A DNA stretch of 64,000 bases from Candidatus Parcubacteria bacterium (GCA_023131895.1 JAGLYZ010000003.1:1394-65393), one strand, 5' to 3'; positions 8,318 to 43,900 are shown, counted from the stretch's first letter. A program made the numbers and translations. The notes: a model not told the origin generated them from the letters alone.

Positions 8318-8893
8318 TTACTTTTCTCTGATGCTCACCCCGCCTTCGCCGACAGCTATAATCTCAAAAACGTCTTTGAGCGAAGCGCTAAAAACTAAAT
8401 TATAATAATCATCTTTTTTTTCAAAAAGAGGAGTTTGATATCCTTTATCGGTTTTCACTATAAAAGATAAAATTTCACAATCACCTTTGGTAACTACACT
8501 TGTTTTAATTTCTAACTTGCCATTCTCGTATTTTTTCTCCAAGACCTCTGTCCATCCCTTGCATCTCTCCCTTGCTTCTTTTATTTTTTCTTTATCCGGT
8601 TTTGCCTGTTCCTTAACAATTGTTTCGTTCTCTCTGTCTTTAATTAAAATCCCGTATTTATCTCCGCAGTCATAAACACTGCAAGAAAAGAACTCTACTC
8701 CCTCGCAGAGAAAATAATAAGAGCAGTTCTTATCTAAACAGGAATCTGTTAGAAGCTGACAATTTTCAAAAGGAATCGGTTTTTCAACTGGACCAGGAAC
8801 TTGCTGACCAATAAAATAAAAAACTATGAGTAATAAAATTGTAAGAGAGAAGCTAATCCATATTATTAAATTTTTTTTCTTTATTGTTGCCAT
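8318..8893 (-). CDS. membrane-anchored cysteine-rich hypothetical protein
   Basis: 191 aa with an N-terminal TM helix and 8+ Cys. Its stop lies 1 nt before the start of the 608-aa gene (coupled). Confidence 0.55.
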   Translation of the reverse strand: MATIKKKNLIIWISFSLTILLLIVFYFIGQQVPGPVEKPIPFENCQLLTDSCLDKNCSYYFLCEGVEFFSCSVYDCGDKYGILIKDRENETIVKEQAKPDKEKIKEARERCKGWTEVLEKKYENGKLEIKTSVVTKGDCEILSFIVKTDKGYQTPLFEKKDDYYNLVFSASLKDVFEIIAVGEGGVSIREK

Positions 8894-9021
8894 ATTATTA
8901 TTATAAATTATTTTATTATCTTTTTTTATTATATCAAACTATAGAAAATAAAAAAGGTAAACTGTGGATAACTCAAAAACTAAAAATTGGAATTATTATC
9001 TTAATAAGCTATAATAAAATA

Positions 9022-9588
9022 ATGAAATCAGGATTCACTTTAATAGAGCTTTTATTAGTTGTTGCTATTATCTCTATTCTAACTGCTATAGTTACAATAG
9101 ATTATAGAACAGCAGGAAAAAAATTTTCCTTAGAAAGGTCTGCTAATAAATTAGCCCAAGAAATGCGAAAAACGCAGCAAATGACTATGTCAGCTGAACA
9201 AATTGGTTTACCTGGAGCAAAATTTTATCCGGAAGGAGGATATGGAATTCGTTTTGAAGAACCAGACGCTGGATCCCCCTTGGGTCAGGCATTTATTTTC
9301 GCTGATTGCGATAATAACGATCAATTTACACCCGGAAATGACATATGCAATGGCTCATTCTCTGAAAAAATTAAAGATATAGAATTAGAAAAAGACATTA
9401 AGATAAAGTCCCTTTTTCCTGTCTCTAATCTTGATATTACTTTTAAATCACCTGGCCCTACTATTATCTTTTTTTCTGAAAAAGCTGAATCGCTAGTACC
9501 TGAAGCTACAATAACCATTTCTTTTTTAGAAAACGGCAATACCAAAACTGTAAAAATCAACAAAGCTGGTTTAATAGAAGCAGAATAA
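9022..9588 (+). CDS. prepilin-type N-terminal cleavage/methylation protein (pilin/pseudopilin)
   Basis: The internal ATG at 9022 gives MKSGFTLIELLLVVAIISIL.... The upstream 46 codons of the tracked ORF (from 8884) are Tyr/Leu-rich AT-region read-through. Confidence 0.8.
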   Translation: MKSGFTLIELLLVVAIISILTAIVTIDYRTAGKKFSLERSANKLAQEMRKTQQMTMSAEQIGLPGAKFYPEGGYGIRFEEPDAGSPLGQAFIFADCDNNDQFTPGNDICNGSFSEKIKDIELEKDIKIKSLFPVSNLDITFKSPGPTIIFFSEKAESLVPEATITISFLENGNTKTVKINKAGLIEAE

Positions 9589-9607
9589 CAAAAATATAAT
9601 TATCTTT

Positions 9608-10117
9608 ATGAAAAACAAAGGTTTTACTATATTAGAGCTTTTAGTAACTATTTTTATTATTAGCATAGGCATATTAGGAGCTTCCGCGGCTATTAACAAA
9701 ACCATGAGTTTAACATCAAATTATTCCTCTAAACTTATTGCTGTTTCTCTTGCCCAAGAAGGTATTGAAATTGTTAGAAATATAAGAGACGGCAATTTTC
9801 TTGAGCAAAGGGCTTCTCCAGCTACACCTTGGAATGATGGATTTGTTACTCCTGGAGATTATGAAGCTGACTATACAATGGCAGATGGATTAGATAATTG
9901 GACTAACAGATATTTAAAAACCAATAGCAACGGTTTTTATTTTTATAGCGATAATCCTATTTATTCAGAAACTAAGTTTAAAAGAAAAATTACTATTTCG
10001 GAAATAGCCGATATTATAGACCCAAATTCCAGAGCAATCTTAGTTGAAGTATCTTGGCTGGAAAAAGGAGATACTAAAACAATTACTGCCAAAGAATATT
10101 TATGTAACTGGGAATAG
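9608..10117 (+). CDS. prepilin-type N-terminal domain protein (minor pilin)
   Basis: MKNKGFTILELLVTIFIISIGILG... Confidence 0.8.
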   Translation: MKNKGFTILELLVTIFIISIGILGASAAINKTMSLTSNYSSKLIAVSLAQEGIEIVRNIRDGNFLEQRASPATPWNDGFVTPGDYEADYTMADGLDNWTNRYLKTNSNGFYFYSDNPIYSETKFKRKITISEIADIIDPNSRAILVEVSWLEKGDTKTITAKEYLCNWE

Positions 10118-10242
10118 CAAGTCATACTAACATACTAACATTTTAACATTCTAACAAAATTCAATATAAAATGTTTATATGCTTACATGTTAGTACGTTA
10201 ATATGTTTAAATGTTAATATGTTAAAATGCTTAAATGTTAAA
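10118..10242. repeat. TAACAT/ATGTTA heptad palindromic element, copy B (inverted relative to copy A)
   Basis: CATACTAACATACTAACATTTTAACATTCTAACAAAATTCAATATAAAATGTTTATATGCTTACATGTTAGTACGTTAATATGTTTAAATGTTAATATGTTAAAATGCTTAAATGTTAAA. It ends at the ATG of the next pilin gene. Confidence 0.7.
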
Positions 10243-10824
10243 ATGACGAAAAGGGGTTTTACTTTAATGGAAATAATGGTTTCAGTAACTGCTTCTTTTT
10301 TGATTATAGGAGCTATCATCGGACTTTTTATTTCTATAAATCAATCTCAAAAAAGAATATTATCTACTTATGAACTTGTAAACCAAACCGGCTATGCTAT
10401 AGAATATATGAGCCGTGCGTTAAGAACAGGAGAAAAAGAATCAGGACAGGGGTGTCTTGCGTCTTCAGGATTGAATTATGAAATTCCAGTTATATATCAA
10501 ATTGGAGGAAATGAAAATTTAGGAACTGGCTTGAAATTTATAAATCATTTAGAGAATAATGACTGTCAGGAATTTTTTCTTGATGGAAGTCAACTAAAAT
10601 ACAGAAAAGGTATTGGAACCGTGAACGAACAAATATTAGCTTTAACTTCTAATGATCTTCAAATTATTGATTTTAAGTTTAAACTTTCAGGAAAAGACCA
10701 TGAAGACAATATTCAGCCAAGAATAACTATGCTTTTTGTTATTCAAGCTGGTGAAGAAGGGGCAAAAATCAATATTCAGACCACAGTGTCGCAAAGAAAC
10801 ATTGATACATATCAAATATATTAA
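10243..10824 (+). CDS. prepilin-type N-terminal domain protein (minor pilin)
   Basis: The ATG at 10243 gives MTKRGFTLMEIMVSVTASFLIIGAI.... The tracked start at 10171 lies inside the heptad repeat. Confidence 0.8.
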   Translation: MTKRGFTLMEIMVSVTASFLIIGAIIGLFISINQSQKRILSTYELVNQTGYAIEYMSRALRTGEKESGQGCLASSGLNYEIPVIYQIGGNENLGTGLKFINHLENNDCQEFFLDGSQLKYRKGIGTVNEQILALTSNDLQIIDFKFKLSGKDHEDNIQPRITMLFVIQAGEEGAKINIQTTVSQRNIDTYQIY

Positions 10825-10825
10825 A

Positions 10826-11206
10826 ATGGCAATCCAAAAATCAGAAAAAGGCGTTATTTTTTATTTAGCTTTAATAATACTGACTATTTCAATGGCTATT
10901 GTTTTAGGATTGAGTCCAATTTTAATAGGACAAATTAAAACAATCCAGCAAATGGAAAATTCAATGAAAGCATTTTTTGCGGCTGATACAGGGATAGAAA
11001 TAGCTCTTTATGACAAAAGCGAACCTGAATCAAGTTATTCAGGTTCTTTAAATGGCGCAACATACGAAGTAACAGTTGTCTGCAATGAGCTTTATTTAGA
11101 CTGCCCTTTTGGAATATGGGATAGTGACTGCAACGGTCATTTCTTTTGCTATGAGTCAATTGGCAGTTACAGAGAAATTAAAAGGGCAATTGAAATTATA
11201 AGATAA
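10826..11206 (+). CDS. PilX-like pilus-associated membrane-anchored protein (hypothetical)
   Basis: The ATG at 10826 gives MAIQKSEKGVIFYLALIILTISMAIVLG.... It is the last gene of the pilin cluster and begins 2 nt after the previous stop. Confidence 0.5.
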   Translation: MAIQKSEKGVIFYLALIILTISMAIVLGLSPILIGQIKTIQQMENSMKAFFAADTGIEIALYDKSEPESSYSGSLNGATYEVTVVCNELYLDCPFGIWDSDCNGHFFCYESIGSYREIKRAIEIIR

Positions 11207-11827: not shown

Positions 11828-13042
11828 CTATTTAGATTTATTAGATGTTTTTTTCTCTTTTGTCTTTTTCTCTTTTTTTTCTTCCTTGTCCGCCGTAGTC
11901 CCGCGTGGCGGGACGGGTTTTCCTTCTTCCGGGCTTCTAACATCTATTTTCCAGCCAGTTAATTTGGCTGCTAAACGGACATTTTGGCCATTTTTGCCAA
12001 TAGCTAAAGAAAGCTGATCTTCCGGCACCAAAACCAATGCCTTGTTTTTCGGCATAATCTTAACCTCTAAAACTTTGGCTGGAGACAAAGAATTCGCAAT
12101 ATATTTTTCAGGGGCATCAGAATATTCAATAATATCAATCTTTTCTCCGCCTAATTCATTAATCACTGCTGTAACCCTTGTTCCTCTTTGGCCAACCATA
12201 GCGCCAATAGGATCCATGCCTTCTGCGTCAGAACTAACAGCAATTTTTGAACGGGACCCAGCTTCTCTTGCAATTGACTTTATGAAAACCTGATCAGTTG
12301 AAATCTCTGGCACCTCCAACTCAAAAAGTTTTGAAACCATTTTGGGATAAGCCCTGGACAAAATAATCTGCGGTCCTTTAGGCGTGAGCTCCACATTTAA
12401 AACATAAAGCCGAAACCTCTGGTTAAGACGGTAAAATTCCCCTAAAATCTGCTCCTCTCTTGGCAAAATGCCAACTGTCTTGCCAATATCAAAGAAAACT
12501 GCTCTTTGCTCAATTCTCTGGACTAATCCAGAAATTATTTCTCCTATTTTTGATTCAAACTCCTGAAGAATTGACTCTCTTTCTACTTCTTTAATCTTTT
12601 GTAAAATTACCTGCTTGGCTGTCTGCGCCGCAATTCGGCCATAATCATCCTGTGTTTCTAAAGATAGCTCTAATTCATCCCCAACTTTTATCTTCGGCTC
12701 TATCTTTTTCGCTTCTTCAAATATAATATGCTTTTCTGGATTAAAACGGATTTTTTCCTCCTTGTCCGCCGAAGCTTCAGCAGAGGCGGATTCCTTTAAC
12801 TCCTCCAGTTCATCTTCAGAATAAATCATATCCTCTGAAACAACCATCTTTATCTGCCAAAATTTTACACTCCCTGTTTTTGGAGAAAGCTTAGCTTTAA
12901 TAATCTGCCCTTTTTTACCATAATCCTTTTTATAGGCAGCAGCCAATGCCTGCTCAATAACCTCAATCACTTTTTCTTGAGGGATGCCTTTTTCTTCAGC
13001 AATCTGTGTTACAGCTGATGTAAATGATTTAATTTCAAACAT
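11828..13042 (-). CDS. nusA: transcription termination/antitermination factor NusA
   Basis: 404 aa with N-terminal, S1 and two KH regions (...GMDPIGAMVGQRGTRV...AIGKNGQNVRLAAKLTGWKIDV...) and a Lys/Glu tail. Confidence 0.9.
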   Translation of the reverse strand: MFEIKSFTSAVTQIAEEKGIPQEKVIEVIEQALAAAYKKDYGKKGQIIKAKLSPKTGSVKFWQIKMVVSEDMIYSEDELEELKESASAEASADKEEKIRFNPEKHIIFEEAKKIEPKIKVGDELELSLETQDDYGRIAAQTAKQVILQKIKEVERESILQEFESKIGEIISGLVQRIEQRAVFFDIGKTVGILPREEQILGEFYRLNQRFRLYVLNVELTPKGPQIILSRAYPKMVSKLFELEVPEISTDQVFIKSIAREAGSRSKIAVSSDAEGMDPIGAMVGQRGTRVTAVINELGGEKIDIIEYSDAPEKYIANSLSPAKVLEVKIMPKNKALVLVPEDQLSLAIGKNGQNVRLAAKLTGWKIDVRSPEEGKPVPPRGTTADKEEKKEKKTKEKKTSNKSK

Positions 13043-13120
13043 AAAAAATTTTTAGAAAAGTCCGTTGAAAAGAACGGACTGTTTTTATAATAGCAAATCT
13101 AATAACTTTGTCAACTATTT

Positions 13121-13474
13121 GGTGGTGTTTGTTGGACGAAATCCGAACTTTCTTTGAGCAAAATCCAGAGGATTTTGCGGATTGAATCCCGCCCAGCGTT
13201 TCCGCCCGCCTTTGCTTCGCTACGGCGAGCAAAACAGAAAAATTTTCTAAACATTTTTTAATCGCCTGCCCCAAATTTTTTTCAATTAAGGAAAAGAAAA
13301 TTTTTCTGTTTTGATATTCTACTAACGCAGAATTGCGGAAACGCTTTCCCACCCCATAGTCCCGCTTTGCGGGACTGGCAAGCTGGCAAAAATTCATTTT
13401 CCCTACACCCCTTTTTCTTTTTGCCCGCCTGTTCTTTGACTCTGTCCTGAAAATTTTTTTGGCTGGCGTCGGGG
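13121..13474. repeat. structured ~350-bp repeat, copy X1 (body 13121-13377, 41-bp palindromic core 13385-13425, tail to 13474)
   Basis: The body is about 80% identical to the reverse complement of 21064-21314. 13378-13474 is 100% identical to the reverse complement of 14865-14961. Confidence 0.85.
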
Positions 13475-13501
13475 ATATATTAAGAGAGAGCAAACATAAG
13501 G

Positions 13502-13993
13502 TTACAAACCCAGCCGTTCAATCATATCTTTTTTCAGATTTATTGCAAAATTTCTCGCATCTTCTAAATCTTTTTTATTAGGTCTGCCTTTGTTTAGTCC
13601 ACCAGTAAATTTCAAAAATGGAATGTATCTATCAAAAAGATATGTATCAAACCCTCTACAAGAAAACTTCCCTACAATATCAAACCCCTTTTCTAACAAT
13701 TTTTTAAAAAGTGGCCGATGATAAAACCATACAGGACCTATACCTCTTGTTGAAAAAATAAATGCCTTTTTGTTTTTCATTATAGGTAGATTATCAACAA
13801 GAGCAAGTAATGCTTTATGCTGTTTAAAAAAATAAATTCCTGAGCCAAACCCAATGAGGTCGTATTTGGAAAGAGTATTCACCTCAATCTTATTGGGTCT
13901 CAATAATTCTGCATTAAAGATTTTAGCCATTTCTTTAGCAATTTTTTCTGTATTACCATTATGTATTGATATGTAAATAATTAGAGTTTTCAT
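13502..13993 (-). CDS. flavodoxin-like fold protein
   Basis: 163 aa: MKTLIIYISIHNGNTEKIAKEMA...IGFGSGIYFFK... Confidence 0.6.
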   Translation of the reverse strand: MKTLIIYISIHNGNTEKIAKEMAKIFNAELLRPNKIEVNTLSKYDLIGFGSGIYFFKQHKALLALVDNLPIMKNKKAFIFSTRGIGPVWFYHRPLFKKLLEKGFDIVGKFSCRGFDTYLFDRYIPFLKFTGGLNKGRPNKKDLEDARNFAINLKKDMIERLGL

Positions 13994-14451
13994 ATTAACA
14001 TTTCTAGATTTTTAAACTCCTCTTTTGCGTGTTTTTCAAGCGCCTCTTCAAATGCTTTTGTAAGATAAAATTTTTTCAAAAGCAAATCGATTATTTTACC
14101 GAATAATCCTTTGTATCCAACCTCTATTTTATGAATTACTTTCGCGCCTGTGTTCGTAGATTCGAAAGCTAACGAAAAATAACCAGAAATAAGCGATTTC
14201 CATTTATAAAGCAAAAATCTATTTGGTTCAACCTTTACAAGTTTTCCAGTAAGTTTTAATCTGAAGTGGTTAAATTGTTCATCTAAATAGACAATACTTC
14301 CCATTTCATTGGGTGTTCGTTTAATAGTCTTCCATGCTTTATGGGCGGGGTGCCACTTCTTATATTTCTCATCATCCAAATCGAGAATCCAGTTATATAT
14401 CTGTTCTGGAGTTTTGCCTTTTATCTCAATTTTCGTAATTATAATAATCAT
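13990..14451 (-). CDS. SRPBCC/START-like hypothetical protein
   Basis: 153 aa. Composition and length fit the SRPBCC fold. ATGA overlap with the flavodoxin-like gene. Confidence 0.4.
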   Translation of the reverse strand: MIIIITKIEIKGKTPEQIYNWILDLDDEKYKKWHPAHKAWKTIKRTPNEMGSIVYLDEQFNHFRLKLTGKLVKVEPNRFLLYKWKSLISGYFSLAFESTNTGAKVIHKIEVGYKGLFGKIIDLLLKKFYLTKAFEEALEKHAKEEFKNLEMLI

Positions 14452-14520
14452 ATTATCTCTCCCTCATAAGTTTATAGATTTTTTTATTTATTAGATTTTT
14501 CTAAAGCGAGGTTAGGAATT

Positions 14521-14733
14521 TCATTTTATTAAATCGCCAATATCAACCTTTAATGCTTTAGCGATTTTCGTTAAAGTTTCAATAGTGGGATTTGGATTTT
14601 CACCAGATTCAATTTTTACAATAGTATTATAAGCGACATCAGCAAACTTAGAAAGCTTATCTTGAGAAATCTCAAGTTTCTTTCTATAATGCTTGATATT
14701 TTTCGCTATTGTGGATAATCTTCTTGTTGACAT
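14521..14733 (-). CDS. XRE-family helix-turn-helix transcriptional regulator
   Basis: 70 aa: ...IKHYRKKLEISQDKLSKFADVAYNTIVKIESGENPNPTIETLTKIAKALKV... Confidence 0.85.
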   Translation of the reverse strand: MSTRRLSTIAKNIKHYRKKLEISQDKLSKFADVAYNTIVKIESGENPNPTIETLTKIAKALKVDIGDLIK

Positions 14734-14864
14734 TTGACTAATAATTTAATACTATTATAGTAGATGTTAGATATTAGATATAGTATATTTTTTCTCATTA
14801 ACTAATATAATGATACTAAATTATTTTAGTAATGTAAAGCAGCAAATTTATCTTTTTCGATTTG

Positions 14865-14999
14865 CCCCGACGCCAGCCAAAAAAATTTTCAGGACAGAGT
14901 CAAAGAACAGGCGGGCAAAAAGAAAAAGGGGTGTAGGGAAAATGAATTTTTGCCAGCTTGCTTATTCACTCTCTGATTTAGAATTTTATTGCTCCTGAT
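14865..14999. repeat. partial repeat copy X3 (tail + core 14914-14954 + 38-bp S1 arm 14962-14999)
   Basis: 14865-14961 is the exact reverse complement of 13378-13474. 14962-14999 matches the reverse complement of 20977-21014 at 35/38. Confidence 0.85.
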
Positions 15000-15005
15000 T
15001 TTTCT

Positions 15006-15087
15006 CTATAACGAATCGAGGATAAAAGAAATTCTGCGAGGCAGAATTTGGACGGAGCAAAGCGGAGTCTTTTATCCTCTGTTATCG
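15006..15087 (-). other. attC-like folded palindrome 4
   Basis: The minus strand reads CGATAAC-A-GAGGATAAAAGA-(38 nt)-TCTTTTATCCTC-GATTC-GTTATAG. Confidence 0.55.
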
Positions 15088-15170
15088 GAGTCTTGGCAAG
15101 CTGAGACCGAGCCACGAAGTGGCGAAGAGTTGCGGGGCTTTAATTTTTGTCATTAAAAGTTTTTTTCTCT

Positions 15171-16298
15171 TCACTCAGTTGTAGGATATAAAAGTCTTTC
15201 CCCTGATGCGACTCTCTTTACTAAATCTAAATTAACAAGTCTACAAAGGTCTTCTACTTTAGATTTAGCTGAATAGAAACCTAATGGATGATTTTCCATT
15301 GGAGGTATCCAAGAATCCTTATAGATAGTAACCCTAAGTTGTTCTATTTCTTGAATTTCATCATTATTGAGTTCATGATCAAAATATAAGAAAAGTTTCA
15401 TTTCGTCTGTGATATTTTTTTGCATGGCTTGCATTACAACTAGACTTTCAAATTTTTTGCTGTCTCTAATATCTTCTAGGTCACATTCAATTATAGATGG
15501 TTTTGCCTTGCATCCACATTGTTTACTGTTTTCCTCTGTAATTAAATCTGAATTTGAAATCCATGGACAGGGTTCTGATTCGTTTTTGGCTATTGCTTTA
15601 CAATACTCTTCACAGTTAATTTCTCTTTTTACCGTGCATTTGTTATCAACGCAAATAGGTGTGAATTTCTCTAAATTTAGGCAGTGAGAACATTGTGGTG
15701 GTGAGTAATAAGGGCAAGTTGGCGGGCACTTTGCTTTCATCTCCTGTTCGATTTTTTCTTTACTCTCTTTATTCACAACATTTGGTGATTCTCTTTTACA
15801 TGGGTCTGGAGGTGGACAACATCTAATAAAATCCAAAAATACACAATCTGAATCTTTTTCACAATATTTTTCATTATCTATGACTTTTGTCTTTTGGCTA
15901 CAACAATCAAAATAACATGTCCAGTCATATCCAAAAACAAAATTGCCTGATTTCCTTTCTTTTACAGAAGAAGCTTTAATAAATTTACAATCGCGATCAA
16001 TAAGATTAATATTTTTATATCTTTGCCATTCATCATACCAAACAGAGTCTTTTCCAATCTCCTTAGAGCACATCACTTGGATAAAATCCTTTAATCTATT
16101 TTCACACAATCTTTTTTGTTCTTCTGCGTTGGCTGGAGGACCTGCCTCATCGCCGGCACCCATTTCAAAGTAAATATTACTACAATCTACCTTTACCTGT
16201 TGAGTTGGTTGACTGCTCCAAAGCCACAATCCACCAACTACAACAATTCCAATTACTAAACAAACTATTCCAATTTTAATTTTCTTTTCCATAGTCAT
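15171..16298 (-). CDS. membrane-anchored cysteine-rich hypothetical protein (cassette ORF)
   Basis: 375 aa with about 30 Cys. N-terminal anchor ...VVVGGLWLWSSQPTQQV. Confidence 0.55.
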   Translation of the reverse strand: MTMEKKIKIGIVCLVIGIVVVGGLWLWSSQPTQQVKVDCSNIYFEMGAGDEAGPPANAEEQKRLCENRLKDFIQVMCSKEIGKDSVWYDEWQRYKNINLIDRDCKFIKASSVKERKSGNFVFGYDWTCYFDCCSQKTKVIDNEKYCEKDSDCVFLDFIRCCPPPDPCKRESPNVVNKESKEKIEQEMKAKCPPTCPYYSPPQCSHCLNLEKFTPICVDNKCTVKREINCEEYCKAIAKNESEPCPWISNSDLITEENSKQCGCKAKPSIIECDLEDIRDSKKFESLVVMQAMQKNITDEMKLFLYFDHELNNDEIQEIEQLRVTIYKDSWIPPMENHPLGFYSAKSKVEDLCRLVNLDLVKRVASGERLLYPTTE

Positions 16299-16348
16299 AA
16301 TTTAATTGTATTAAAGTTAATAAATATTTTCAAAAGCCTCGCCATTTC

Positions 16349-16426
16349 CGATAACGTATCCCAGATATACGAAGTCCCGAAGGGATTTGAGCGTAACGAA
16401 GTGAAGCCGTATATCTGGTGTTAGAT
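16349..16426 (-). other. attC-like folded palindrome 3
   Basis: The minus strand reads ATCTAAC-A-CCAGATATACG-(36 nt)-CGTATATCTGG-GATAC-GTTATCG. The TAA inside ATCTAAC is the stop codon of the upstream ORF. Confidence 0.55.
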
Positions 16427-17173
16427 GTTGTAAATTTTTAGGGATTTTGCGAATCTTCTCTCCCTGTACAACAACATACCGGCATAGATAACGCTTACAT
16501 TTAAAACAATTTGGGAAACTATTTCTATAAAAATTATCAATGGATTAAATCCAAAGAATATGACATAGTCAATCGTTCCATCTAATAAACCATATACTGG
16601 TGGTACCAAAAGAAATGTCTCAAGCCACATATAGATAAACGGTATCATAGCAATGCTAAATAATGTTGCTCGTCCTAACCAGTTGTTTTTTATATCAAAA
16701 TGTAATGCTAACAATATGTTCAGCAGCATAAAAATAACGGGTATCCGAATTGAAGTTAATATAAAAACGAATTCTTCTAATCCCATCAGGTCCCCTAAAA
16801 TATATGAGCCAAACCACAGTGTAAAGGCGGGGAATAATCCGGGATGCTCTAATGCCATTTCAGGTGTCAATGAAGATGTACTTAAAGCGTCTATAGCCCC
16901 CCATGATGTTAAAATCACAAAAAACCAGATTGGAACCCCAATCAGACCACGATATAAGTCCCACTTATACAATTTTTTAAGATTACCTTCTGGTGGTTTA
17001 CTCATTAACATACTGATAAACAGAATTGTAAAGCCAGCAACAATAAATACCATTCCTAATGCGCCAATACCCGCTTGATCTTCTGTAATTTGCGGCTTTG
17101 ACATTGTATCCAAAACCATGAATATACCAATAATTCCTAAAATCAAACCAATTGCAAATATGATTTTTTTCAT
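16421..17173 (-). CDS. polytopic membrane protein (hypothetical, cassette ORF)
   Basis: 250 aa with about 7 hydrophobic helices. Confidence 0.55.
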   Translation of the reverse strand: MKKIIFAIGLILGIIGIFMVLDTMSKPQITEDQAGIGALGMVFIVAGFTILFISMLMSKPPEGNLKKLYKWDLYRGLIGVPIWFFVILTSWGAIDALSTSSLTPEMALEHPGLFPAFTLWFGSYILGDLMGLEEFVFILTSIRIPVIFMLLNILLALHFDIKNNWLGRATLFSIAMIPFIYMWLETFLLVPPVYGLLDGTIDYVIFFGFNPLIIFIEIVSQIVLNVSVIYAGMLLYRERRFAKSLKIYNI

Positions 17174-17244
17174 AATTAATCCTATTGAAAATCTTTATTA
17201 ATAAAACTTTTCCCGAGCAAAATCCCGTTAAGAAAATTTATTGC

Positions 17245-17345
17245 ATCTAACATCTGGGATATACGAAGTTTTTCTGGAACGAAGTGGAAGAAAAATTTGG
17301 GTGAGGGGCGAGCCGAGCCCCGAACCGTATATCCTCTTGTTGTAC
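17245..17345 (-). other. attC-like folded palindrome 2
   Basis: The minus strand reads GTACAAC-AAG-AGGATATACG-(60 nt)-CGTATATCCC-AGAT-GTTAGAT. Confidence 0.5.
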
Positions 17346-17522
17346 GCCCCGACGACTGAAGGGAGGAGAGCGCAGCGTGGCTTGAGTTCAAAAAATATTT
17401 TTCGTTCTTATCCATCAAATAGGCTTTCGTTTATTTCTTATAAATTTGATTTTTTCCTATTTTAAAAATGGAAGAGGGGTTAGGGGTGAATTTCATTTTT
17501 TATGGTCAACCATATCATTATA

Positions 17523-18344
17523 TTATTGATGTTTATCAAGATTAACAACTTCAAACTTTGGATAATGAACTACAAATTGCGGAACACTAACATTTGAGTC
17601 CAATAATATTTTTTTTGTCTTATCAATAAATTCATTAAACTGCGTTTCATCCACCAGTATTTGATAATTTCTCAGGTAGTTTTCTCTAAGTATCTTTTTA
17701 AATTCTCCACCAGCGGCTTTTAAATTCATCATTTCAACAATGTAGTAATCTGCAAAATTTTTTGTTTTTGAAATCAATAATTTGATATTGATTAATTCAG
17801 GAATTACTGGGGATATAAAACAAAAAGTTTTAATCCTATTATTTTTTAGAGTTTTCAACGCCTTTATTCTTTCTTCATTACTGGGAGAATGCGGTTCAAA
17901 TAAATCTTTTGTATTTCCTTCAAAAGTATTAATTGTCAAACCGACTTCTATTTTTTTGAATTGTTTTAATAAATCAATGTCCCTTGTTATTAAATCTGAT
18001 TTTGTTAATATTGAAAGTTCTGTGCGTTTGTCCATGCTTTGCAAAATACGGCGTGTCAACTGCAATTCTTTTTCTGCTGGCTGATAAGGGTCGGAGACAG
18101 AAGACATAATGACTTTTCCATTAACAATTTTTTTTGCGAGTTCAGGAGCATTGATTTTCGCTTCTACCCAATCACCCCATTTCCCGTGATTTTTCCACCG
18201 GCACATAAATTTTGCGTAGCAATAAGTACAAGCATATTCACAGCCAATATATTGGTTTATTACATACTTTGCACTAGGAGTTTTCGTTTTTGTAAATATA
18301 CTCTTTGCATTAATTTTAATTATTTTGGCAGTCATAGTAATCAC
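17523..18344 (-). CDS. radical SAM protein, SplB/DNA-photolyase-like (COG1533-type)
   Basis: 273 aa with a CxxxCxxC cluster motif GCEYACTYCYAKF near the N-terminus. Confidence 0.7.
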   Translation of the reverse strand: MITMTAKIIKINAKSIFTKTKTPSAKYVINQYIGCEYACTYCYAKFMCRWKNHGKWGDWVEAKINAPELAKKIVNGKVIMSSVSDPYQPAEKELQLTRRILQSMDKRTELSILTKSDLITRDIDLLKQFKKIEVGLTINTFEGNTKDLFEPHSPSNEERIKALKTLKNNRIKTFCFISPVIPELINIKLLISKTKNFADYYIVEMMNLKAAGGEFKKILRENYLRNYQILVDETQFNEFIDKTKKILLDSNVSVPQFVVHYPKFEVVNLDKHQ

Positions 18345-18850
18345 TTAGAAGCACTTGCCTTACAGAGAGATCTCATTTTGCATTGAGAGCATCCTTTCTT
18401 TCTTCCGAATTGGTTTATTATCATAATCACAATAAAACCCAATAGAGAGATTCCACCAGAAATTAAAAATTCTCTATTCAAAAATATAGCAATTGGAATA
18501 ACAATAATTGGAATGAGTGTTAATAATCCCCAAGTCATGCCTGCTAATTTCATTCCGAGTTTGTAATCTCCTGATTTTTGTTTAAACTGGCATGAACTTA
18601 ATTTGCTCCAGCCACTTCCGCATAATTTACCATAATAATAGCAATGTGTGCAAAGATGTTTTCTTAGGACAATTCCCAACATTACTAATGCAAATGACAA
18701 ATAGAGTATGGAAATAATAGGGAATCCTGCAAATTTAAATGCCGACATTCCGTACGCCGCTAATCCAAACCATAATAACAACAGCGTGTTGGTTAAAATT
18801 ACTGATGATTTTGGATAATTCTCCAATCCTTTTTCGTATAGTTTTTCCAT
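18341..18850 (-). CDS. membrane protein with CxxC motifs (hypothetical)
   Basis: 169 aa with 4 TM segments, plus CTHCYYYGKLCGSGW and GCSQCKMRSLC. It overlaps the radical SAM start by 4 nt. Confidence 0.5.
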   Translation of the reverse strand: MEKLYEKGLENYPKSSVILTNTLLLLWFGLAAYGMSAFKFAGFPIISILYLSFALVMLGIVLRKHLCTHCYYYGKLCGSGWSKLSSCQFKQKSGDYKLGMKLAGMTWGLLTLIPIIVIPIAIFLNREFLISGGISLLGFIVIMIINQFGRKKGCSQCKMRSLCKASASK

Positions 18851-18852
18851 AA

Positions 18853-19182
18853 TTACTTTTCTCCAAAGCGACCAATAAAATAACCCATCAAACTTCCGAT
18901 AATAAGATTTGTAACCAGCATTGGAACTAGTTCTTGGGGACTGCCAGCAACTACTACAATCATCATTGGAAAGGCTATTAAAAAGAAAATTAGCGTTCCT
19001 TTTAAAGTATTATTCAATTTTAGGTTTGATGTTGATATGAGAAAACCGCCGATAACACACATCAAAAATGCTGATACTAATGTGTCCCAAGTCATTTTCA
19101 TAAGCATCATAGGGATTATATCAACTATACCAAAAATAATACCAATGATAAGTCCTACTTTTGTTTTGCTCATTTTTTCCAT
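18853..19182 (-). CDS. small membrane protein (hypothetical)
   Basis: 109 aa with 3-4 TM segments. Its stop lies 2 nt before the next start. Confidence 0.5.
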   Translation of the reverse strand: MEKMSKTKVGLIIGIIFGIVDIIPMMLMKMTWDTLVSAFLMCVIGGFLISTSNLKLNNTLKGTLIFFLIAFPMMIVVVAGSPQELVPMLVTNLIIGSLMGYFIGRFGEK

Positions 19183-19381
19183 AATCTTTACCTCTTTATT
19201 AAATATAAATATCGTTATTATATAAGTTTTGTTTTTCTTTTCAATTTATAAGTTGTTTTCGTAACGGAGTGGAGAAAACACAAATTATCCCCCTCTTTTG
19301 TTTCAGAAAAAATCAAATTTATTTCCCTTTTTAGAAAGCCCGTCATTCTTTTGTCTTTTAGAAAAATATTTTTTGAATTGC

Positions 19382-19472
19382 GTATAACATATAGTGCTAA
19401 AAGAAGTTGTTGCGTAGCAACAATTTGGATGGAACGACCGCAGGGAGTGAAATCTTTTAGCACTTGTTAAGT
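19382..19472 (-). other. attC-like folded palindrome 1
   Basis: The minus strand reads ACTTAAC-A-AGTGCTAAAAG-(50 nt)-CTTTTAGCACT-ATAT-GTTATAC. The plus strand ends in GTTAAGT (fits GTTRRRY). Confidence 0.55.
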
Positions 19473-19501
19473 GAAGTATGACGCAGCCGCCGAGTTAAAA
19501 T

Positions 19502-19945
19502 CTATTTCATCTTCTCGAGTTCCATTATGTTGTTAGGAGGTGTGGTAGCTTCATGAACTGTTATTTTACCTGTGAAGTCCACAAATACGTATCTGCATGG
19601 GTGTGCCCAGTTGGCCCATGGAGCGTCATCAACGAAGAAGAACCAACCCTCCTTCTGTGGGAGTTCAATTGAACTGTGCCAACTTTCTATGGTTGTGCCA
19701 GCTTTCACTGGTTTGGGACCTACATATACCCATTTCCCTTCGGTACTTCCATTCAAAAGCTCTGATATGACCAGATTGTAAGCATCCGTCTTGGATATGT
19801 TTTTATCTGCTTCAAATTCTTTCCATTCCTCAACTTGATCTAGTTGTTGACTATTCCAAATCCACAATCCTCCAACTAAAACAATTACCATAATCAAAAT
19901 TCCAATAAAGATTTTTGTTTTTGAATTCATAATAGTTTTCCTCAT
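19502..19945 (-). CDS. membrane-anchored/exported hypothetical protein (first cassette ORF)
   Basis: 147 aa. The N-terminal anchor ...VLVGGLWIWNSQQLDQV is shared with the 375-aa ORF. Confidence 0.55.
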   Translation of the reverse strand: MRKTIMNSKTKIFIGILIMVIVLVGGLWIWNSQQLDQVEEWKEFEADKNISKTDAYNLVISELLNGSTEGKWVYVGPKPVKAGTTIESWHSSIELPQKEGWFFFVDDAPWANWAHPCRYVFVDFTGKITVHEATTPPNNIMELEKMK

Positions 19946-20010
19946 AATTTTATTGTTAGACTTATTTATTAATCTTATGAGTTTATATGCTCGGCGGCGA
20001 GTAATATTTC

Positions 20011-20086
20011 ATTTAACTCGTTTCTATACGAATTGAATGTATAATATCGACCTTTTGTTGCATATTATACGAACTTAATGTATAAT
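20011..20086. promoter_or_regulatory. attI-like region: GTTAAAT core plus two 21-bp direct repeats
   Basis: Minus-strand GTTAAAT at 20017-20011. TATACGAATTGAATGTATAAT (20025-20045) and TATACGAACTTAATGTATAAT (20066-20086) match 18/21, and each has inverted TATAC/GTATA ends. Confidence 0.45.
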
Positions 20087-20146
20087 TATTAATGAAATTA
20101 CTAATAATTACTTAACTAACTTTAGTTTACTAATTTTTATAAAATT

Positions 20147-20962
20147 ATGCAACAAAAATATTTGGAACAAACAAGGCGGGAATTAAAATTAAGAAATTAT
20201 AGTTTCAAAACCATAAAGGCCTATCTCGGTTGTTTAAAAGAATATTTTGATTTTAAAAAATTTAATTTAGAAAAAATAGACGAGGAAAATATAAAGCAGT
20301 TTTTATTAAATAAACAAGACAAAAATTATTCTTCACAAACGATAAATCTTTACTTAAATGCAATAAAATTTTTTTACCGCGAAGTATTGAAAATTCCCGA
20401 AAAGATAAATTTGAAATTCGCCAAGCGAAGTAAAAAACTACCGATTGTTCTATCAAGAGAAGAAATTGAAAACATCATTGAGTCAATCAAAAATCCAAAG
20501 CATAAATTAATAATCTCTTTAGCTTATGGCGCCGGCTTGAGAATCAGTGAAGTTATTAGTCTAAAAGTAAAAGATGTCGATTTAGAAGAATTAACTATCC
20601 ATCTTAAAAACGCCAAAGGCAAAAAGGACAGAATCACTATTTTCCCGGAAAAAATTAGAAGAGATATTCAAGGTTTAATAGCCAGAAAAAATTCGGACGA
20701 TTATCTTTTTGAAAGCGAACGGGGCGGAAAATTAACCGAGCGGACAGCCCAAAAAGTTTTTGAAAACGCACTCCGAGGAACGGGTATAAAAAAAGACGCT
20801 ACATTCCATTCGTTAAGACACAGCTTTGCAACACATTTATTAGAAAATGGTGTTGATGTCAGGTATGTGCAGGAACTTTTAGGGCATCAGAATATCAGAA
20901 CAACTCAAATTTATACTCAGGTAACAAATCCAAAACTCAAAAACATTAAAAGTCCGTTATGA
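20147..20962 (+). CDS. tyrosine site-specific recombinase (IntI/Xer-like, lacks the IntI-specific insertion)
   Basis: 271 aa: ...YSFKTIKAYLGCLKEYF..., KKLPIVLSREEI, LAYGAGLRISEVISLKVKDVDL, KGKKDR, HSLRHSFATHLLENGVDVRYVQELLGHQNIRTTQIYTQV...IKSPL. The R..K..HxxR..H..Y catalytic pattern is present. Confidence 0.9.
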   Translation: MQQKYLEQTRRELKLRNYSFKTIKAYLGCLKEYFDFKKFNLEKIDEENIKQFLLNKQDKNYSSQTINLYLNAIKFFYREVLKIPEKINLKFAKRSKKLPIVLSREEIENIIESIKNPKHKLIISLAYGAGLRISEVISLKVKDVDLEELTIHLKNAKGKKDRITIFPEKIRRDIQGLIARKNSDDYLFESERGGKLTERTAQKVFENALRGTGIKKDATFHSLRHSFATHLLENGVDVRYVQELLGHQNIRTTQIYTQVTNPKLKNIKSPL

Positions 20963-20976
20963 TTAAAACGGGAAAA

Positions 20977-21314
20977 ATCAGAAGCAATAAAACTCTAAAT
21001 CAGAAAGTGAATAAGCTTAGTAAGCAAAAAGAAAAAGGGATGTGGGGGAAATGAATTTTTGCCCGCCTGCTGTCCCTCAAAACGGGACTGGGGTTGGGAG
21101 CGTTTCCGCAATTCTGCGTTAGCAGAATATCAAAACAGAAAAATTTTCTTTTCCTTAATTGAAAAAAATTTTGCGAGGGGCTATTAAAAAAATGTAGAGA
21201 AAATTTTTCTGTTTTGCTCGCCGTCAGGCGAGTGAAAACGCTGGGTCGGGGTTCAAAAATCCGCTTGCGGATTTTTCTCAAAATGAGTTCGGATTTCGTC
21301 CAGCAAACACCACC
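20977..21314. repeat. structured repeat copy X2 (S1 arm 20977-21014, core 21023-21063, inverted body 21064-21314)
   Basis: Reverse-complement match to the X1 body. The S1 arm and core are shared with X3. Confidence 0.85.
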
Positions 21315-21398
21315 ACTTCGCTTTTTGTAATTATAGATTAATGTTTATTATGCTCGTGTTTGCACCACGTAGCTCCGAGGCGTAACCGAGGAGCGAAG

Positions 21399-21472
21399 TG
21401 GTGGACCCAGCGAGAGTCGAACTCGCGACATCGCAATGCCATTGCGATATTTTACCACTAAACTATGGGCCC
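21399..21472 (-). tRNA. tRNA-Ala (anticodon GGC), CCA encoded
   Basis: Acceptor GGGCCCA/TGGGTCC with the G3:U70 identity pair, anticodon arm TCGCA-ATGGCAT-TGCGA, T loop TTCGACT, then ACCA. Confidence 0.85.
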
Positions 21473-25261: not shown

Positions 25262-25575
25262 AAACTCCCGTTCCTCTTACAAGATAAGAAAAATCATTAT
25301 AGATTTTTCCCAGAGGAACGAGAGTTTTAATATAAAATTCCCGCGGTCCCATCCTCGTTTCCTAACACCTTAAAAGGTAGCAGGACACTTGATTAAGTTA
25401 ACGATGAGTGACACCGTCTCAGCTTGTATCTTCTTAGGATTTTCTTGCCGAGCTGCTCCAGAGGCGTGTTTAGAAATTTTTTAGCGCTTGGCTTTCACTA
25501 CCCCAAGCTCGCTTTAGCTTATATTATATTTCTTACTATTCCTCTGTACAAACGCATTTCGTATTTAATTTTAAT
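25262..25575 (-). ncRNA. T-box riboswitch leader, His specifier (CAC)
   Basis: Stem I: CAGAGG/CCUCUG base, specifier loop AAUAGUA / AAA-CAC-G, distal GCUUGG-GGUAGUGAAAG-CCAAGC. Antiterminator: GAGGA-UGGGACC-GCGGGA..UCUCGU-UCCUC. Terminator: AAAACUCUCGUUCCUCU..AGAGGAACGGGAGUUUUUU. Confidence 0.85.
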
Positions 25576-40960: not shown

Positions 40961-43900
40961 TCATACTCCGTCTTCGGAAGGCGTGGTTGTGTCAACTGGA
41001 GGAATATCTGGAACATCTGGAACATCTGGCTCGCTCCCTTCGACTTCAACACACTCGCCGAGTTGCTTTTGCCATTCGCCATTTTCAATCCAGGTACACC
41101 AAACATGGCCAGTAGCTTTATCCCGCATCTCCATTTGCTCAGCCGCCATTGTTTTTGTCTTTAATTTTTGGACCTCCAAAGTACCGTATTCACTGACGAT
41201 TAAGCCGAGATTAGATAGATTATTGATAATTGATAATTGATCATCATTGAGAATATTATCGTTCTCGTCAGTAATAACTGCCAAATCCTGGCCCTGCCAG
41301 CCAACATTAACCAAAGTCATCACCTTGCCGATTTCGCTTTGTACTACTTCACAACTTTCAGGTTCTATATCTTCTCCTTCTTCGTTTTTAATAAAGCTGA
41401 TTTCACAATTAGTCACTGTACCGTCAAACGGCTCAAAGGCCTGACCAATAATCCTGCCAGGGCCAGTGGCTTTCATAGCCACCCCTGGCTCAGAAGAAGA
41501 AGTTAAAAAATCACCGATTTTAATAGGCCCGTTTTCCAGATTAACTTTAACCGGCACTCTACCAACTAAAGCAACCGGAACCTGGAAAGGATAATCTTCG
41601 GTATTACAACCGCTACCTAAAATTAAACCTGGTTTAGTTGAAATTACACCAATTATTGTTTGTTCGTAAGAACTTACTGTTTTTTCAACTAAGTTTGATT
41701 CTTTAATTCTGACTACATCTCCTGGTTCAAGTTCTTTGTTTGAGAAAAATAATTCAGCGACATCAGATTCGCCGCTATGAGCAGTGCCATAATAAATATC
41801 TCCGGCTATATTGCCAGCGCAATCATTACCGTCTGCTCTTACGCATAACGCTCCTACAACCTTTAATTTAGCAGTGGGCGTTGTGTCGCCAATACCAACA
41901 CTGCCTTCAATGATTACTCCATCAGTGGGTGAAGTAGTGGTCATATAGCTAGAGCCGAAAGCAGCATTACCGGCTACGGATAACATTGCTAAGGGCACGG
42001 TTGTGCCAATGCCCAGGTTGCCGCCAAAATAGGCATCTCCTTTGCCAGAGATATTGCCTGCGCTGAACAAACCACCAGAACCGATATTGACGCCGCCGCT
42101 AATCTGGAGCTGGCCCTGAGCGATAATATCATTTCTTACCTGAAGACTGCCAGCTTCCAAAGAATGAGCCATAATTGATGTTGCCTCAATTCCTTTAATA
42201 TCCACCACTACTACTCTGGCTGGGGATGTACATGTTAAAATATAGGCGTATCTTCCTGAGACAGCAATGGAATAACCATAGTTTTCACCCGTATCCAGGA
42301 TGACTGCGCCAATTCGGATTGGGCTAACAGGATTAGAAATATCCACCACTACTACTCTCGCTGGAGATGTCCATGTTAAAACATAGGCATATCTGCCCGA
42401 GACAGCAATGGAATAACTAATGTTTTCACCCGCAGCCAGGGTGACTGCGCCAATTCGGGTTGGAGAGGCAGGATTAGAAATATCCACCACTACTACCATG
42501 GCTGGGGATGTGTATGTTGAAACATAGGCGTATCTTCCAGAGACAGCAATGGAATAACCCCAGTCTTCACCCGCAGCCAGGGTAACTGCGCCAACTCGGG
42601 TTGGAGAGGCAGGATTAGAAATATCCACCACTACTACTCTGGCTGGGGATGTCTCTGTTGAAACATAGGCATATCTTCTCGAGACAGCAATGGAAAGACC
42701 TTCGTCTTCACCCGCAGCCAGGGTGACTGCGCCAACTCGGGTTGGGCTAACAGGATTAGAAATATCCACCACTACTACTCTGGCTGGGGATGTGCCTGTT
42801 GAAACATAGGCATATCTTCCCGAGACAGCAATGGAATAACCATAGTTTTCACCCGCAGCCAGGGTGACTGCGCCAACTCGGGTTGGGCTAACAGGATTAG
42901 AAATATCCACCACTACTACTCTGGCTGGGTTTGTAAATATTGAAACATAGGCGTATCTTCCCGAGACAGCAATGGAATAACCAGTGTTTTCACCCGCAGC
43001 CAGGGTGACTGCGCCAATTCTGGTTGGGCTAACAGGATTAGAAATATCCACCACTACTACCCTGGCTGGGGATGTGTATGTTGAAACATAGGCGTATCTT
43101 CCAGAGACAGCAATGGAATAACCAGTGTTTTCACCCGCAGCCAGGGTGACTGCGCCAACTCGGGTTGGAGAGGCATCAGCATTGGCGATATTTTGAATAT
43201 TCCCCACAACATCCAATTTTGTTCCTGGCGTTGCTGTTCCTATTCCGACATTGCCATTTACAAAAGCAGCTGCATACTCTGCACCTGCTCCTGTGCCAGC
43301 ATCTACATACAGGCCATAGCCAGTTGTTCCTGATGCTGCTGTAATTGTTGAGTATAATCCATAGATTGTATCTGCTCCTGATGCAGTGAAGTAGCCAGCA
43401 ATATTAATGGAAGTTGTGCCAGTATTGGCAACTGAAGAATATATACCATAAGCTGTATGGGACGCATTAGCATTGGTGCCAGAGCGAGAGAGGTTGAGAA
43501 GCTTTGAGGTCCCGCTTGCTCCGCCAGCAGTGGAAGTAGAAGTAATATCTAAACCAGTTCCAGTTATTAAGCCATTAACTGAAAGAGCCATTCCAGTGCC
43601 GGAGGTAATTGAGTCGCCAGTGAGATTTACAATATCACCAGTGCCGGCTTGGGTCACGGTGAGAGCGGTGAGAGTGGCATCTGAATCTGTCTCAATTACA
43701 AATAATCCTTCCCCTGCGGCGCCGGTGCGGTTGCCGGCAATAGAAGTAGCGGCGCCAACAACAGAAAGCCCGTCGGTTGTTTTATTGCCGCGAAGGTCAT
43801 TATCAGAAATAGTGTTGTAATTTGAAGAGCCTGTCTCTTCTATTCCATATTCCTGTGTCTTTGTCCCCTGAGTATCAGTACAACGATTATCGCTAATGAT

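Follow-up and report, generated by a model that had tools for sequence, protein, structure and literature searches.

The window, by which we mean the whole stretch of DNA analysed, is 64 kb of a metagenome-assembled Candidatus Parcubacteria genome (JAGLYZ010000003.1:1394-65393). The subject of this study is a block within it, 13120-21398, that lies exactly between the 3' end of a tRNA-Ala(GGC) gene and the promoter of nusA. Its ends are two inverted copies, A and B, of a hairpin-rich repeat, and these enclose a tyrosine recombinase gene and a row of small genes, each set ending in a structured site. We propose that the block is probably a strain-variable, integron-like gene-capture island at tRNA-Ala, with members of a repeat family as its ends and with recombination at CCACCA as its putative mode of exchange. 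The features of the block and its borders are listed below (strand in brackets; open reading frames, ORFs, are named by their number of residues, and a slash within a sequence marks a junction). Loci compared with the window carry L-numbers.

11828-13042 (-): nusA, the left flank; tRNA-Arg and htrA lie beyond tRNA-Ala on the right flank
13087-13114 (-): nusA promoter from a promoter scan, TTGACA-16-TATTAT; host DNA and far boundary of the island
13120-13474 (+): copy A (repeat family 1), with outer module 13120-13166 (TGGTGGTGTTTGTTGGACGAAATCCGAAC...), nested hairpins, X hairpin 13378-13424 and Y module 13425-13474
14960-15004 (+): left A2 module, the inner continuation of the repeat, 93% complementary to 20972-21016; abuts the R''-like TATAAC of the last attC-like site
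15005-15099 (+): attC-like site 4, 3' end of the ORF375 cassette (15171-16298, -)
16346-16430 (+): attC-like site 3, 3' end of the ORF250 membrane-protein cassette (16421-17173, -)
17242-17352 (+): attC-like site 2, 3' end of a three-gene cassette
17523-19182 (all -): the three-gene cassette, ORF109 (18853-19182), ORF169 (18341-18850) and a radical SAM gene (17523-18344)
19379-19482 (+): attC-like site 1, 3' end of the ORF147 cassette (19502-19945, -)
20014-20146 (+): attI-like region; cassette junction ...TTTAAC/TCGTTTC at 20014-20017/20018
20147-20962 (+): IntI-like tyrosine recombinase, 271 residues, with Phage_integrase and SAM_4 domains (Pfam); divergent from the cassettes
20972-21016 (-): right A2 module, beginning 10 nt past the recombinase stop codon
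21024-21315 (-): copy B (repeat family 1), with X hairpin 21070-21024, nested hairpins and outer module 21315-21269
21316-21398 (-): filler of 83 nt between the CCA end of the tRNA and the tip of copy B
21399-21472 (-): tRNA-Ala(GGC), the presumed insertion target; 3' end ...GGGTCCACCA

On the tRNA strand the window reads from GGGTCCACCA through the filler, copy B, the recombinase, the cassettes and copy A to AATAG and the TTGACA of the nusA promoter, which begins only 5 nt from the tip of copy A. Since copy A ends ...CACCACCA on this strand, the terminal CCACCA of the tRNA is directly repeated at the far boundary (as the complement of 13120-13125), 8.28 kb from GGGTCCACCA. The block thus shows the two marks of a tRNA-targeting island: it sits at the 3' terminus of a tRNA gene, and that terminus recurs at its distal border. 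In a relative whose NusA is 88% identical (L133), the order is htrA, tRNA-Arg, a gene of 169 residues, tRNA-Ala(ggc), 8 nt and the nusA promoter (TTGACA..TAAACT), and the junction reads GGGTCCA/CAAAAAAG/TTGACA. Comparison of this empty site with the window therefore indicates that 13120-21398 is present or absent as a single block. The filler is likewise missing from the empty site and had no counterpart in any other locus compared; its ends, CTTCGC and GCGAAG, lengthen the CCACCA/TGGTGG inverted repeat to 12 nt. In a second relative (L135; NusA 87% and recombinase 93% identical) the site is occupied by a smaller block whose two cargo genes are different. Among database matches, the identity of NusA falls steeply (100, 87, 87, 88, 85, 78, then 77% or less), whereas the recombinase has dozens of clusters at 87-93% identity, a pattern that fits either horizontal spread or unusually strong constraint. 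The preliminary description of this DNA had placed an accessory block, bracketed by the repeats, next to tRNA-Ala with nusA on its left and tRNA-Ala, tRNA-Arg and htrA on its right, and had proposed that related genomes be compared for its presence; the flanks are as described and the relatives bear out the variability, while the right end had to be moved from 21314 to 21398.

The arrangement is also seen in assemblies from other samples. The nusA junction and both arms of a 97-nt inverted repeat next to it were found in L139 (99.6%), and the side comprising recombinase, copy B, tRNA and htrA in L002 and L003. Both junctions and the 97-nt repeat are matched at 99.6-100% by contigs of two further samples and of one Logan assembly, and the block is therefore not an assembly artefact.

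The interior of the block has the organisation of an integron. Upstream of the recombinase gene, about 130 nt are conserved in all eight loci for which sequence is available, and conservation ends exactly at ..YTAAC/TCGTTTC, the preceding sequence being distinct in each locus (GCCTAAC, GTCTAAC, GTATAAC; ATTTAAC in the window). Read on the cassette strand this junction is G/TTA, as in the G/TTRRRY consensus of integron attI sites. The attI-like region holds two direct repeats, TATACGAAyTkAATGTATAAT, at 20025 and 20066, and a promoter scan found a promoter-like site directed into the cassettes (20092-20064, -). In the loci compared, the genes past the junction lie without exception on the opposite strand, and the window, L135 and other loci have different cargo at the same attI junction. 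Within ORF147, the first cassette, the L002 contig from another sample is 123 nt shorter in the region corresponding to window 19532-19754, an in-frame length variant at strain level.

Each of the four cassettes ends in an attC-like hairpin of 85-110 nt. These sites were judged by nhmmer, alignment and covariation. The nhmmer search found four in the 64 kb, every one of them within the block and in a single orientation, and arrays of two to six in L005, L009, L012, L039, L063 and L141, with constant orientation relative to the recombinase. As in attC sites, they are imperfect palindromes with R''/R'-like and L''/L'-like boxes at the 3' ends of cassettes. In an alignment of 20 sequences, invariant TAAC and TGTTA boxes pair with one another and are followed by an asymmetric internal loop and an 11-bp stem; 91.3% of the cells are paired, compared with 78.6% in shuffled alignments, and compensatory changes occur at 10 of the 18 pairs. 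The covariation score of 0.375 compares with 0.166 for shuffles and at most 0.12 for slid partners, and was reached by none of 500 shuffles. The antisense strand of the cassette genes has 31 G.T pairs and its complement 6, a bias that parallels the bottom-strand folding of integron attC. The GC-richer structured spacers remarked upon in the preliminary description are these sites. The motif CGAAGTGG, with four copies observed against 0.5 expected, was considered as a separate signal and rejected, its copies sitting in the inner hairpins of the attC-like sites and in the filler.

The recombinase resembles both IntI and Xer enzymes. Its best match in PDB is IntI4 (2a3v; E 2.7e-46, 161.8 bits), with XerA (4a8e) close behind at 152.1 bits, while of the NCBIfam models recombinase XerA_Arch scores 241.7 bits (cutoff 220) and the integron integrase model TIGR02249 226.3 bits (cutoff 265). 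The alignment to IntI4 falls into two stretches, residues 4-198 with 4-203 and 195-271 with 241-317, so that IntI4 residues ~204-240 are skipped. The extra domain specific to IntI, around patch III, is accordingly absent, and canonical IntI membership was rejected on that ground. The best 120 homologues all have between 242 and 293 residues. A group of Xer-related recombinases from candidate phyla, termed 'Cand', has been described with no mobile function assigned (Smyshlyaev et al., PMC8138268).

Copies A and B align at 82.6% identity over 311 columns (13120-13424, +, with 21315-21024, -; blastn E 7e-84), with 257 columns identical in the global alignment and nine indels of 3, 6, 1, 9, 1, 1, 2, 1 and 1 nt. 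The same arms were recovered by a repeat search of the window. In each copy a conserved module of 47 nt is directed outward. The repeat extends a further 45 nt inward from copy B, where 21016-20972 matches 14960-15004 at 93%; since this continuation pairs with a sequence on the far side of 13378-14961, the left copy must be split by a nested module. Each of the 45-nt A2 modules lies between an X hairpin and an ..ATAAC box, the left box being part of the last attC-like site and the right one overlapping the recombinase stop codon (CCGTTATGA), and the segment of attI, recombinase gene and cassettes is thus flanked by inverted core-like boxes. A2 is also found on both sides of the L135 island and in L042. 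Both A and B are nearer to copies in other genomes than to one another: A is 92.7% identical over 312 nt to L070 1926-2239, and B 91.6% to L097 1808-2101.

The preliminary description had these repeats as inverted copies of ~255 bp and roughly 80% identity. The inversion and the degree of identity are real, and the length has to be revised to ~305-350 nt with the left copy interrupted. The two hairpins it singled out exist, CAAAACAGAAAAATTTTCT/AGAAAATTTTTCTGTTTTG as an exact 19-nt stem in both copies and AGCGTTTCCGC/GCGGAAACGCT as a long-range stem within the consensus fold of the family. It was also right in treating the three ORFs predicted across the repeats as artefacts; these were rejected as coding, the frame being broken by indels and the peptide PTPAKKIFRTESKNRRAKRKRGVGKMNFCQLA being read from both strands. 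A tmRNA or tRNA-like RNA ending in CCA was a further candidate and was likewise rejected, ARAGORN and Rfam finding none at the repeats and no T-arm being drawable.

Inside copy A lies the nested module, whose components are as follows.

13378-14961: nested 1.5-kb module whose ends form a perfect 97-nt inverted repeat (13378-13474 / 14865-14961), reproduced in L139
13502-13993 (-): flavodoxin-like gene (Pfam)
13990-14451 (-): SRPBCC gene (Pfam)
14521-14733 (-): HTH_3 gene (Pfam)

The SRPBCC and flavodoxin pair (window 13543-14524) is 81.6% identical at the DNA level to a two-gene cassette bounded by attC-like sites in L141 (2933-3915; also in L142), in an array otherwise unrelated to that of the window. 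Here the pair and the HTH gene are bracketed by the 97-nt inverted repeat instead of attC-like sites. The module may be a later insertion of the same bracketed kind.

The repeat is not confined to this genome. A search of one-genome-per-species contigs with the 47-nt pattern TGGTGTTTnnTGGAnnnnnTCnGAACnnnnTTTGA placed the outer module in at least 120 loci or species genomes, most of them Patescibacteria of many classes. Some of the genome bins are labelled as other phyla, and among the matches listed there is one in a complete Atrimonadaceae chromosome. In that chromosome (L063, CP184673.1, 649-2229) the repeat type is followed by at least three attC-like sites and small genes on the same strand, which suggests spread across phyla. 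In many of the matches listed, the contig breaks off within the interior of the repeat, leaving the outer module 40-250 nt from its end; the sequences on the outer side of the repeats are unique. Past the outer module come interchangeable hairpin modules and then the conserved X hairpin (GGGCAAAAATT, C-rich loop, AATTTTTGCCC); the subtype found in the window is conserved over ~320 nt across 14 loci. Inverted pairs enclose unrelated cargo in other loci: in L006, with identical arms of 195 nt, they surround MFS and ChrB genes and the same recombinase, in L070 a restriction-modification and AAA_15 module, and in L103 glycoside phosphorylase genes. Empty miniatures occur as well (L122, 275 nt; L130, 77 nt). 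The loops GCTTCGC and GCGAAGC are very frequent in family-1 repeats, in attC-like sites and in the region upstream of the serine recombinase genes described below, and one and the same stem carries GCTTCGC or GCGAAGC depending on the member (L044 vs L057).

No duplicated flank, the target-site duplication of a miniature inverted-repeat transposable element (MITE) or other element with terminal inverted repeats, was found in the window, L006, L070, L122 or L130, and no transposase recurs inside the inverted pairs examined. A DDE-type transposon was therefore rejected as the origin of the brackets, for want of such a duplication and of a transposase among the recurrent neighbours. The repeat had no match in viral contigs, plasmids or phages. 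Among the matches listed, a tyrosine recombinase was near the repeat in just one of ~120 genome loci, so the repeat is not simply the site of the recombinase; the commonest neighbour, again among the matches listed, is a large serine recombinase, which is missing from the window.

The link to tRNA ends extends through the family. The outer module faces the 3' end of a tRNA gene in 25 of 132 cases (17 tRNA-Ala, 6 tRNA-Val, one tRNA-Leu and one tRNA-Pro), with a CCACCA ending in 18 of the 21 that were examined in detail. Nine of the tRNA-facing modules lie 9-166 nt from the tRNA and 15 at a constant 1753-1806 nt, the gap in these 15 loci holding a large serine recombinase gene bounded by inverted repeats of 83-136 nt. 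The unit that runs from tRNA-Ala or tRNA-Val to the TGGTGG tip consists of a serine recombinase of ~500-550 residues and a conserved, structured upstream region of ~265 nt (L044 1652-3435, L006 11008-12799, L070 201-1881 and 12 more loci); L012 (66 nt) and L099 (9 nt) look like miniature remnants of it. In L103 the 39-45-nt hairpin that follows its tRNA-Ala is directly repeated, one copy on either flank of the island. In L009 tRNA-Ala takes the place of the outer module beside a flank module that borders on the outer module in other loci, and the joint is again at TGGTGG. When the last 7 nt of the outer module are removed, its reverse complement aligns to the 3' part of the adjacent tRNA above shuffles at 21 of 21 loci (mean score -5.0, against -10.1 for shuffles). 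From this we infer that the outer module may be an attachment sequence resembling a tRNA end.

We therefore return to the proposal of an integron-like island with recombining ends, which we base on the anatomy of the block, its presence and absence in relatives, the cassette-like nature of the junctions, the covariation within the attC-like sites and the repeated occurrence of the brackets, each demonstrable in the sequences themselves. The island would enter and leave by site-specific recombination at the CCACCA core of the tRNA-Ala end. Its attachment site would have two arms, the outer module of A and that of B, which would lie head to head in an excised circle. The symmetry of the outer modules would be sufficient to permit integration in either orientation. 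After integration, the short IntI-like enzyme would exchange cassettes at attI and attC. The enzyme that integrates the island could be the IntI-like recombinase itself, a large serine recombinase whose gene this copy has lost, or one supplied in trans. The predicted junctions are GGGTCCACCA+AATAGTTGACA for the empty site and, for the circle, ...CAAACACCACCA joined to CTTCGCTCC..., or directly to TGGTGGTGTTTG. A broader reading, which we offer tentatively and rate as somewhat doubtful, is that Patescibacteria and some neighbours from the same habitats may carry a hitherto undescribed class of mobile integron, having a minimal IntI-like recombinase without the domain considered essential for recognising attC, and residing on tRNA-Ala/Val islands that end in long, modular hairpin repeats mimicking the tRNA 3' end. 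On that broader reading attachment sites of a new type, made of structured DNA, would form the ends of the islands, and the system would organise the accessory and defence genes of these reduced genomes.

A number of points weigh against the proposal. The extra domain missing from the recombinase is, as cited in PMC9668308 from Messier and Roy (2001), reported to be necessary for IntI activity; with that domain missing and the XerA_Arch threshold passed, the enzyme may be a chromosome-dimer resolvase that is merely located here. Islands such as L070 and L103 have no recombinase inside. The identity of A and B is just 82.6%, which would allow for their separate arrival. The direct repeat in the window comprises 6 nt only and a target-site duplication is absent. 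L133 belongs to a different species from the window, so that its empty site is compatible with loss as well as with gain. Neither an excised circle nor an empty site in the same strain was seen. A metagenome-wide scan found head-to-head outer modules 2-32 nt apart in a single contig (L140), and excision is therefore not documented; L012 has a spacer of 66 nt. Lastly, the whole account is deduced from sequence, and from metagenome-assembled genomes at that.

The most probable of the other explanations is that A and B are two independent, selfish, MITE-like insertions flanking a hot spot for accessory genes, in which case their inverted arrangement would be functionless and the boundaries would be set otherwise. 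The greater likeness of each copy to one in another genome (L070 and L097) than to its partner would be expected under this explanation, as would a MITE-like family that is multi-copy with unique flanks and empty miniatures, and L135 keeps its integron at the same site without outer modules. Against this, L006, L070 and L103 show the same inverted brackets around unrelated cargo, with arms that are identical or nearly so, and the tip of copy A falls at the boundary of the block as defined by the empty site. With neither a target-site duplication nor a transposase found, we consider independent insertion unlikely.

It is also conceivable that the block is an invertible segment used for phase variation, with the recombinase flipping either the 8 kb between the repeats or the attI-intI-cassette part between the inverted ..ATAAC cores next to A2. 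The repeats do enclose their own recombinase, and in L005 the integrase is at the end of the cargo that faces away from the tRNA, whereas that of the window is beside the tRNA. The preliminary description had recommended that inversion of the whole segment be looked for, and no support for it was obtained: the window, L139 and L002/L003 all have one orientation, a comparison of three independent assemblies that minor variants would escape. In addition, an arm identity of 82.6% speaks against frequent exchange between the arms, and inversion does not explain presence and absence or the turnover of cargo in relatives, all of which makes this possibility very improbable.

A role at the level of RNA seems just as improbable. 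The repeats would then be structured non-coding RNA genes (two paralogues), or RNA insulators or terminators that shield nusA and the tRNA against read-through. Compared with shuffled sequences, both strands fold much more stably (z ~ -5.5), as is expected of hairpin-rich DNA; in the consensus fold of the family on the A strand G.U pairs outnumber A.C cells by 28 to 12, and many of the loops are CTTCG. On the other hand, Rfam 15 gave no match at its gathering threshold in the window or in six loci, and chance-level matches only at E up to 10. Neither a conserved promoter nor a conserved terminator is present at the ends, the sequences outside them are unique, the same hairpin position is CTTCG in some members and CGAAG in others, and, like mobile DNA, the copies interrupt assemblies and enclose cargo. 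Being multi-copy in many genomes and lacking an Rfam match, the repeat is not a known housekeeping RNA present once per genome, the finding that, together with an invariant block, the preliminary description had named as evidence against its own proposal. The heptamer d(GCGAAGC) forms an unusually stable DNA mini-hairpin, and its frequency in the loops would fit folding at the level of DNA over folding of RNA. Finally, that the arrangement arose in the assembly or binning of a metagenome-assembled genome can practically be dismissed, for although such repeats are often at contig ends in other genomes, the independent contigs described above reproduce it.

Compared with known integrons, the island shares a tyrosine recombinase whose nearest solved structure is IntI4 and which diverges from a same-strand array of small, mostly promoterless genes, an attI-like region with G/TTA junctions, and imperfect palindromes at cassette ends that have R''-like (..YTAAC) and R'-like (GTTA...) boxes, a covarying inner stem and a bottom-strand G.T bias. 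It differs in that the recombinase, at 271 residues, is without the IntI-specific domain and below the TIGR02249 cutoff, in that the attC-like sites share internal motifs (GAAGTT, AATTTGGG) across distant hosts, and in that the platform is bracketed by inverted repeats of 300 nt. Integrons between inverted repeats are known from MITE-bracketed integrons (integron mobilization units) and from class 1 integrons with the Tn402 ends IRi and IRt. As in these, the integron here lies between inverted non-autonomous repeats that are also found elsewhere, with no transposase inside. Unlike them, it has no target-site duplication and its repeats are modular and at least 300 nt long, and the link to tRNA ends points to site-specific recombination over DDE transposition.

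Islands that target tRNA or tmRNA genes include the ssrA islands of Dehalococcoides, which employ a serine recombinase (PMC3146451), and those of the Islander catalogue (PMC4383910). Common to these and the present island are insertion exactly at the tRNA 3' end, repetition of that end at the far boundary, a recombinase proximal to the tRNA, presence or absence among relatives and, in sister loci, a serine recombinase beside the tRNA. The direct repeat here is just CCACCA, however, long hairpin-rich inverted ends are not classical, and the resident enzyme is of the arm-less Xer/IntI type rather than a phage-type integrase. The pdif modules of Acinetobacter plasmids (Acinetobacter mobile elements are reviewed in PMC9771954) are similar in that accessory modules lie, nested or adjacent, between inverted Xer-type recombination sites; here, by contrast, no dif-like site of the 11-6-11 form was found, the units that form the brackets run to hundreds of nucleotides, and the system is chromosomal and linked to tRNA genes. 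In the literature on integrons or tRNA islands in Patescibacteria we found no description of this system, and two papers on the distribution of integrons (PMC9024848, PMC9668308) do not mention Patescibacteria.

If the broader reading is true, a large share of the variable genes of Patescibacteria would belong to a common modular system, anchored at tRNA genes, in which integron-type cassettes and repeat-bracketed cargo carry restriction-modification, defence, transport and redox genes. Patescibacteria, or the Candidate Phyla Radiation (CPR), have very small genomes, and little is understood of the ways in which accessory genes enter and leave them. Recombination of the attC type would then be possible with an integrase that has no IntI-specific domain, which bears on the origin of integrons from Xer-like recombinases, and current integron finders, in requiring that domain, would miss the whole class. 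The repeat family also accounts for many of the contig breaks in CPR genome assemblies.

Three further features were observed in the window outside the block. At 42202-43057 the minus strand carries seven copies of GTAGTGGTGG spaced 141 nt apart, a 141-nt tandem repeat that is probably inside the gene of a large repetitive protein. A T-box leader at 25311-25561 (93.2 bits, gathering score 93) lies upstream of hisS and beside two tRNA-His genes. At 8884-11206, beside clpP and nusA, are type IV pilin-like genes with N-terminal methylation-type leaders, which are ordinary in Patescibacteria.

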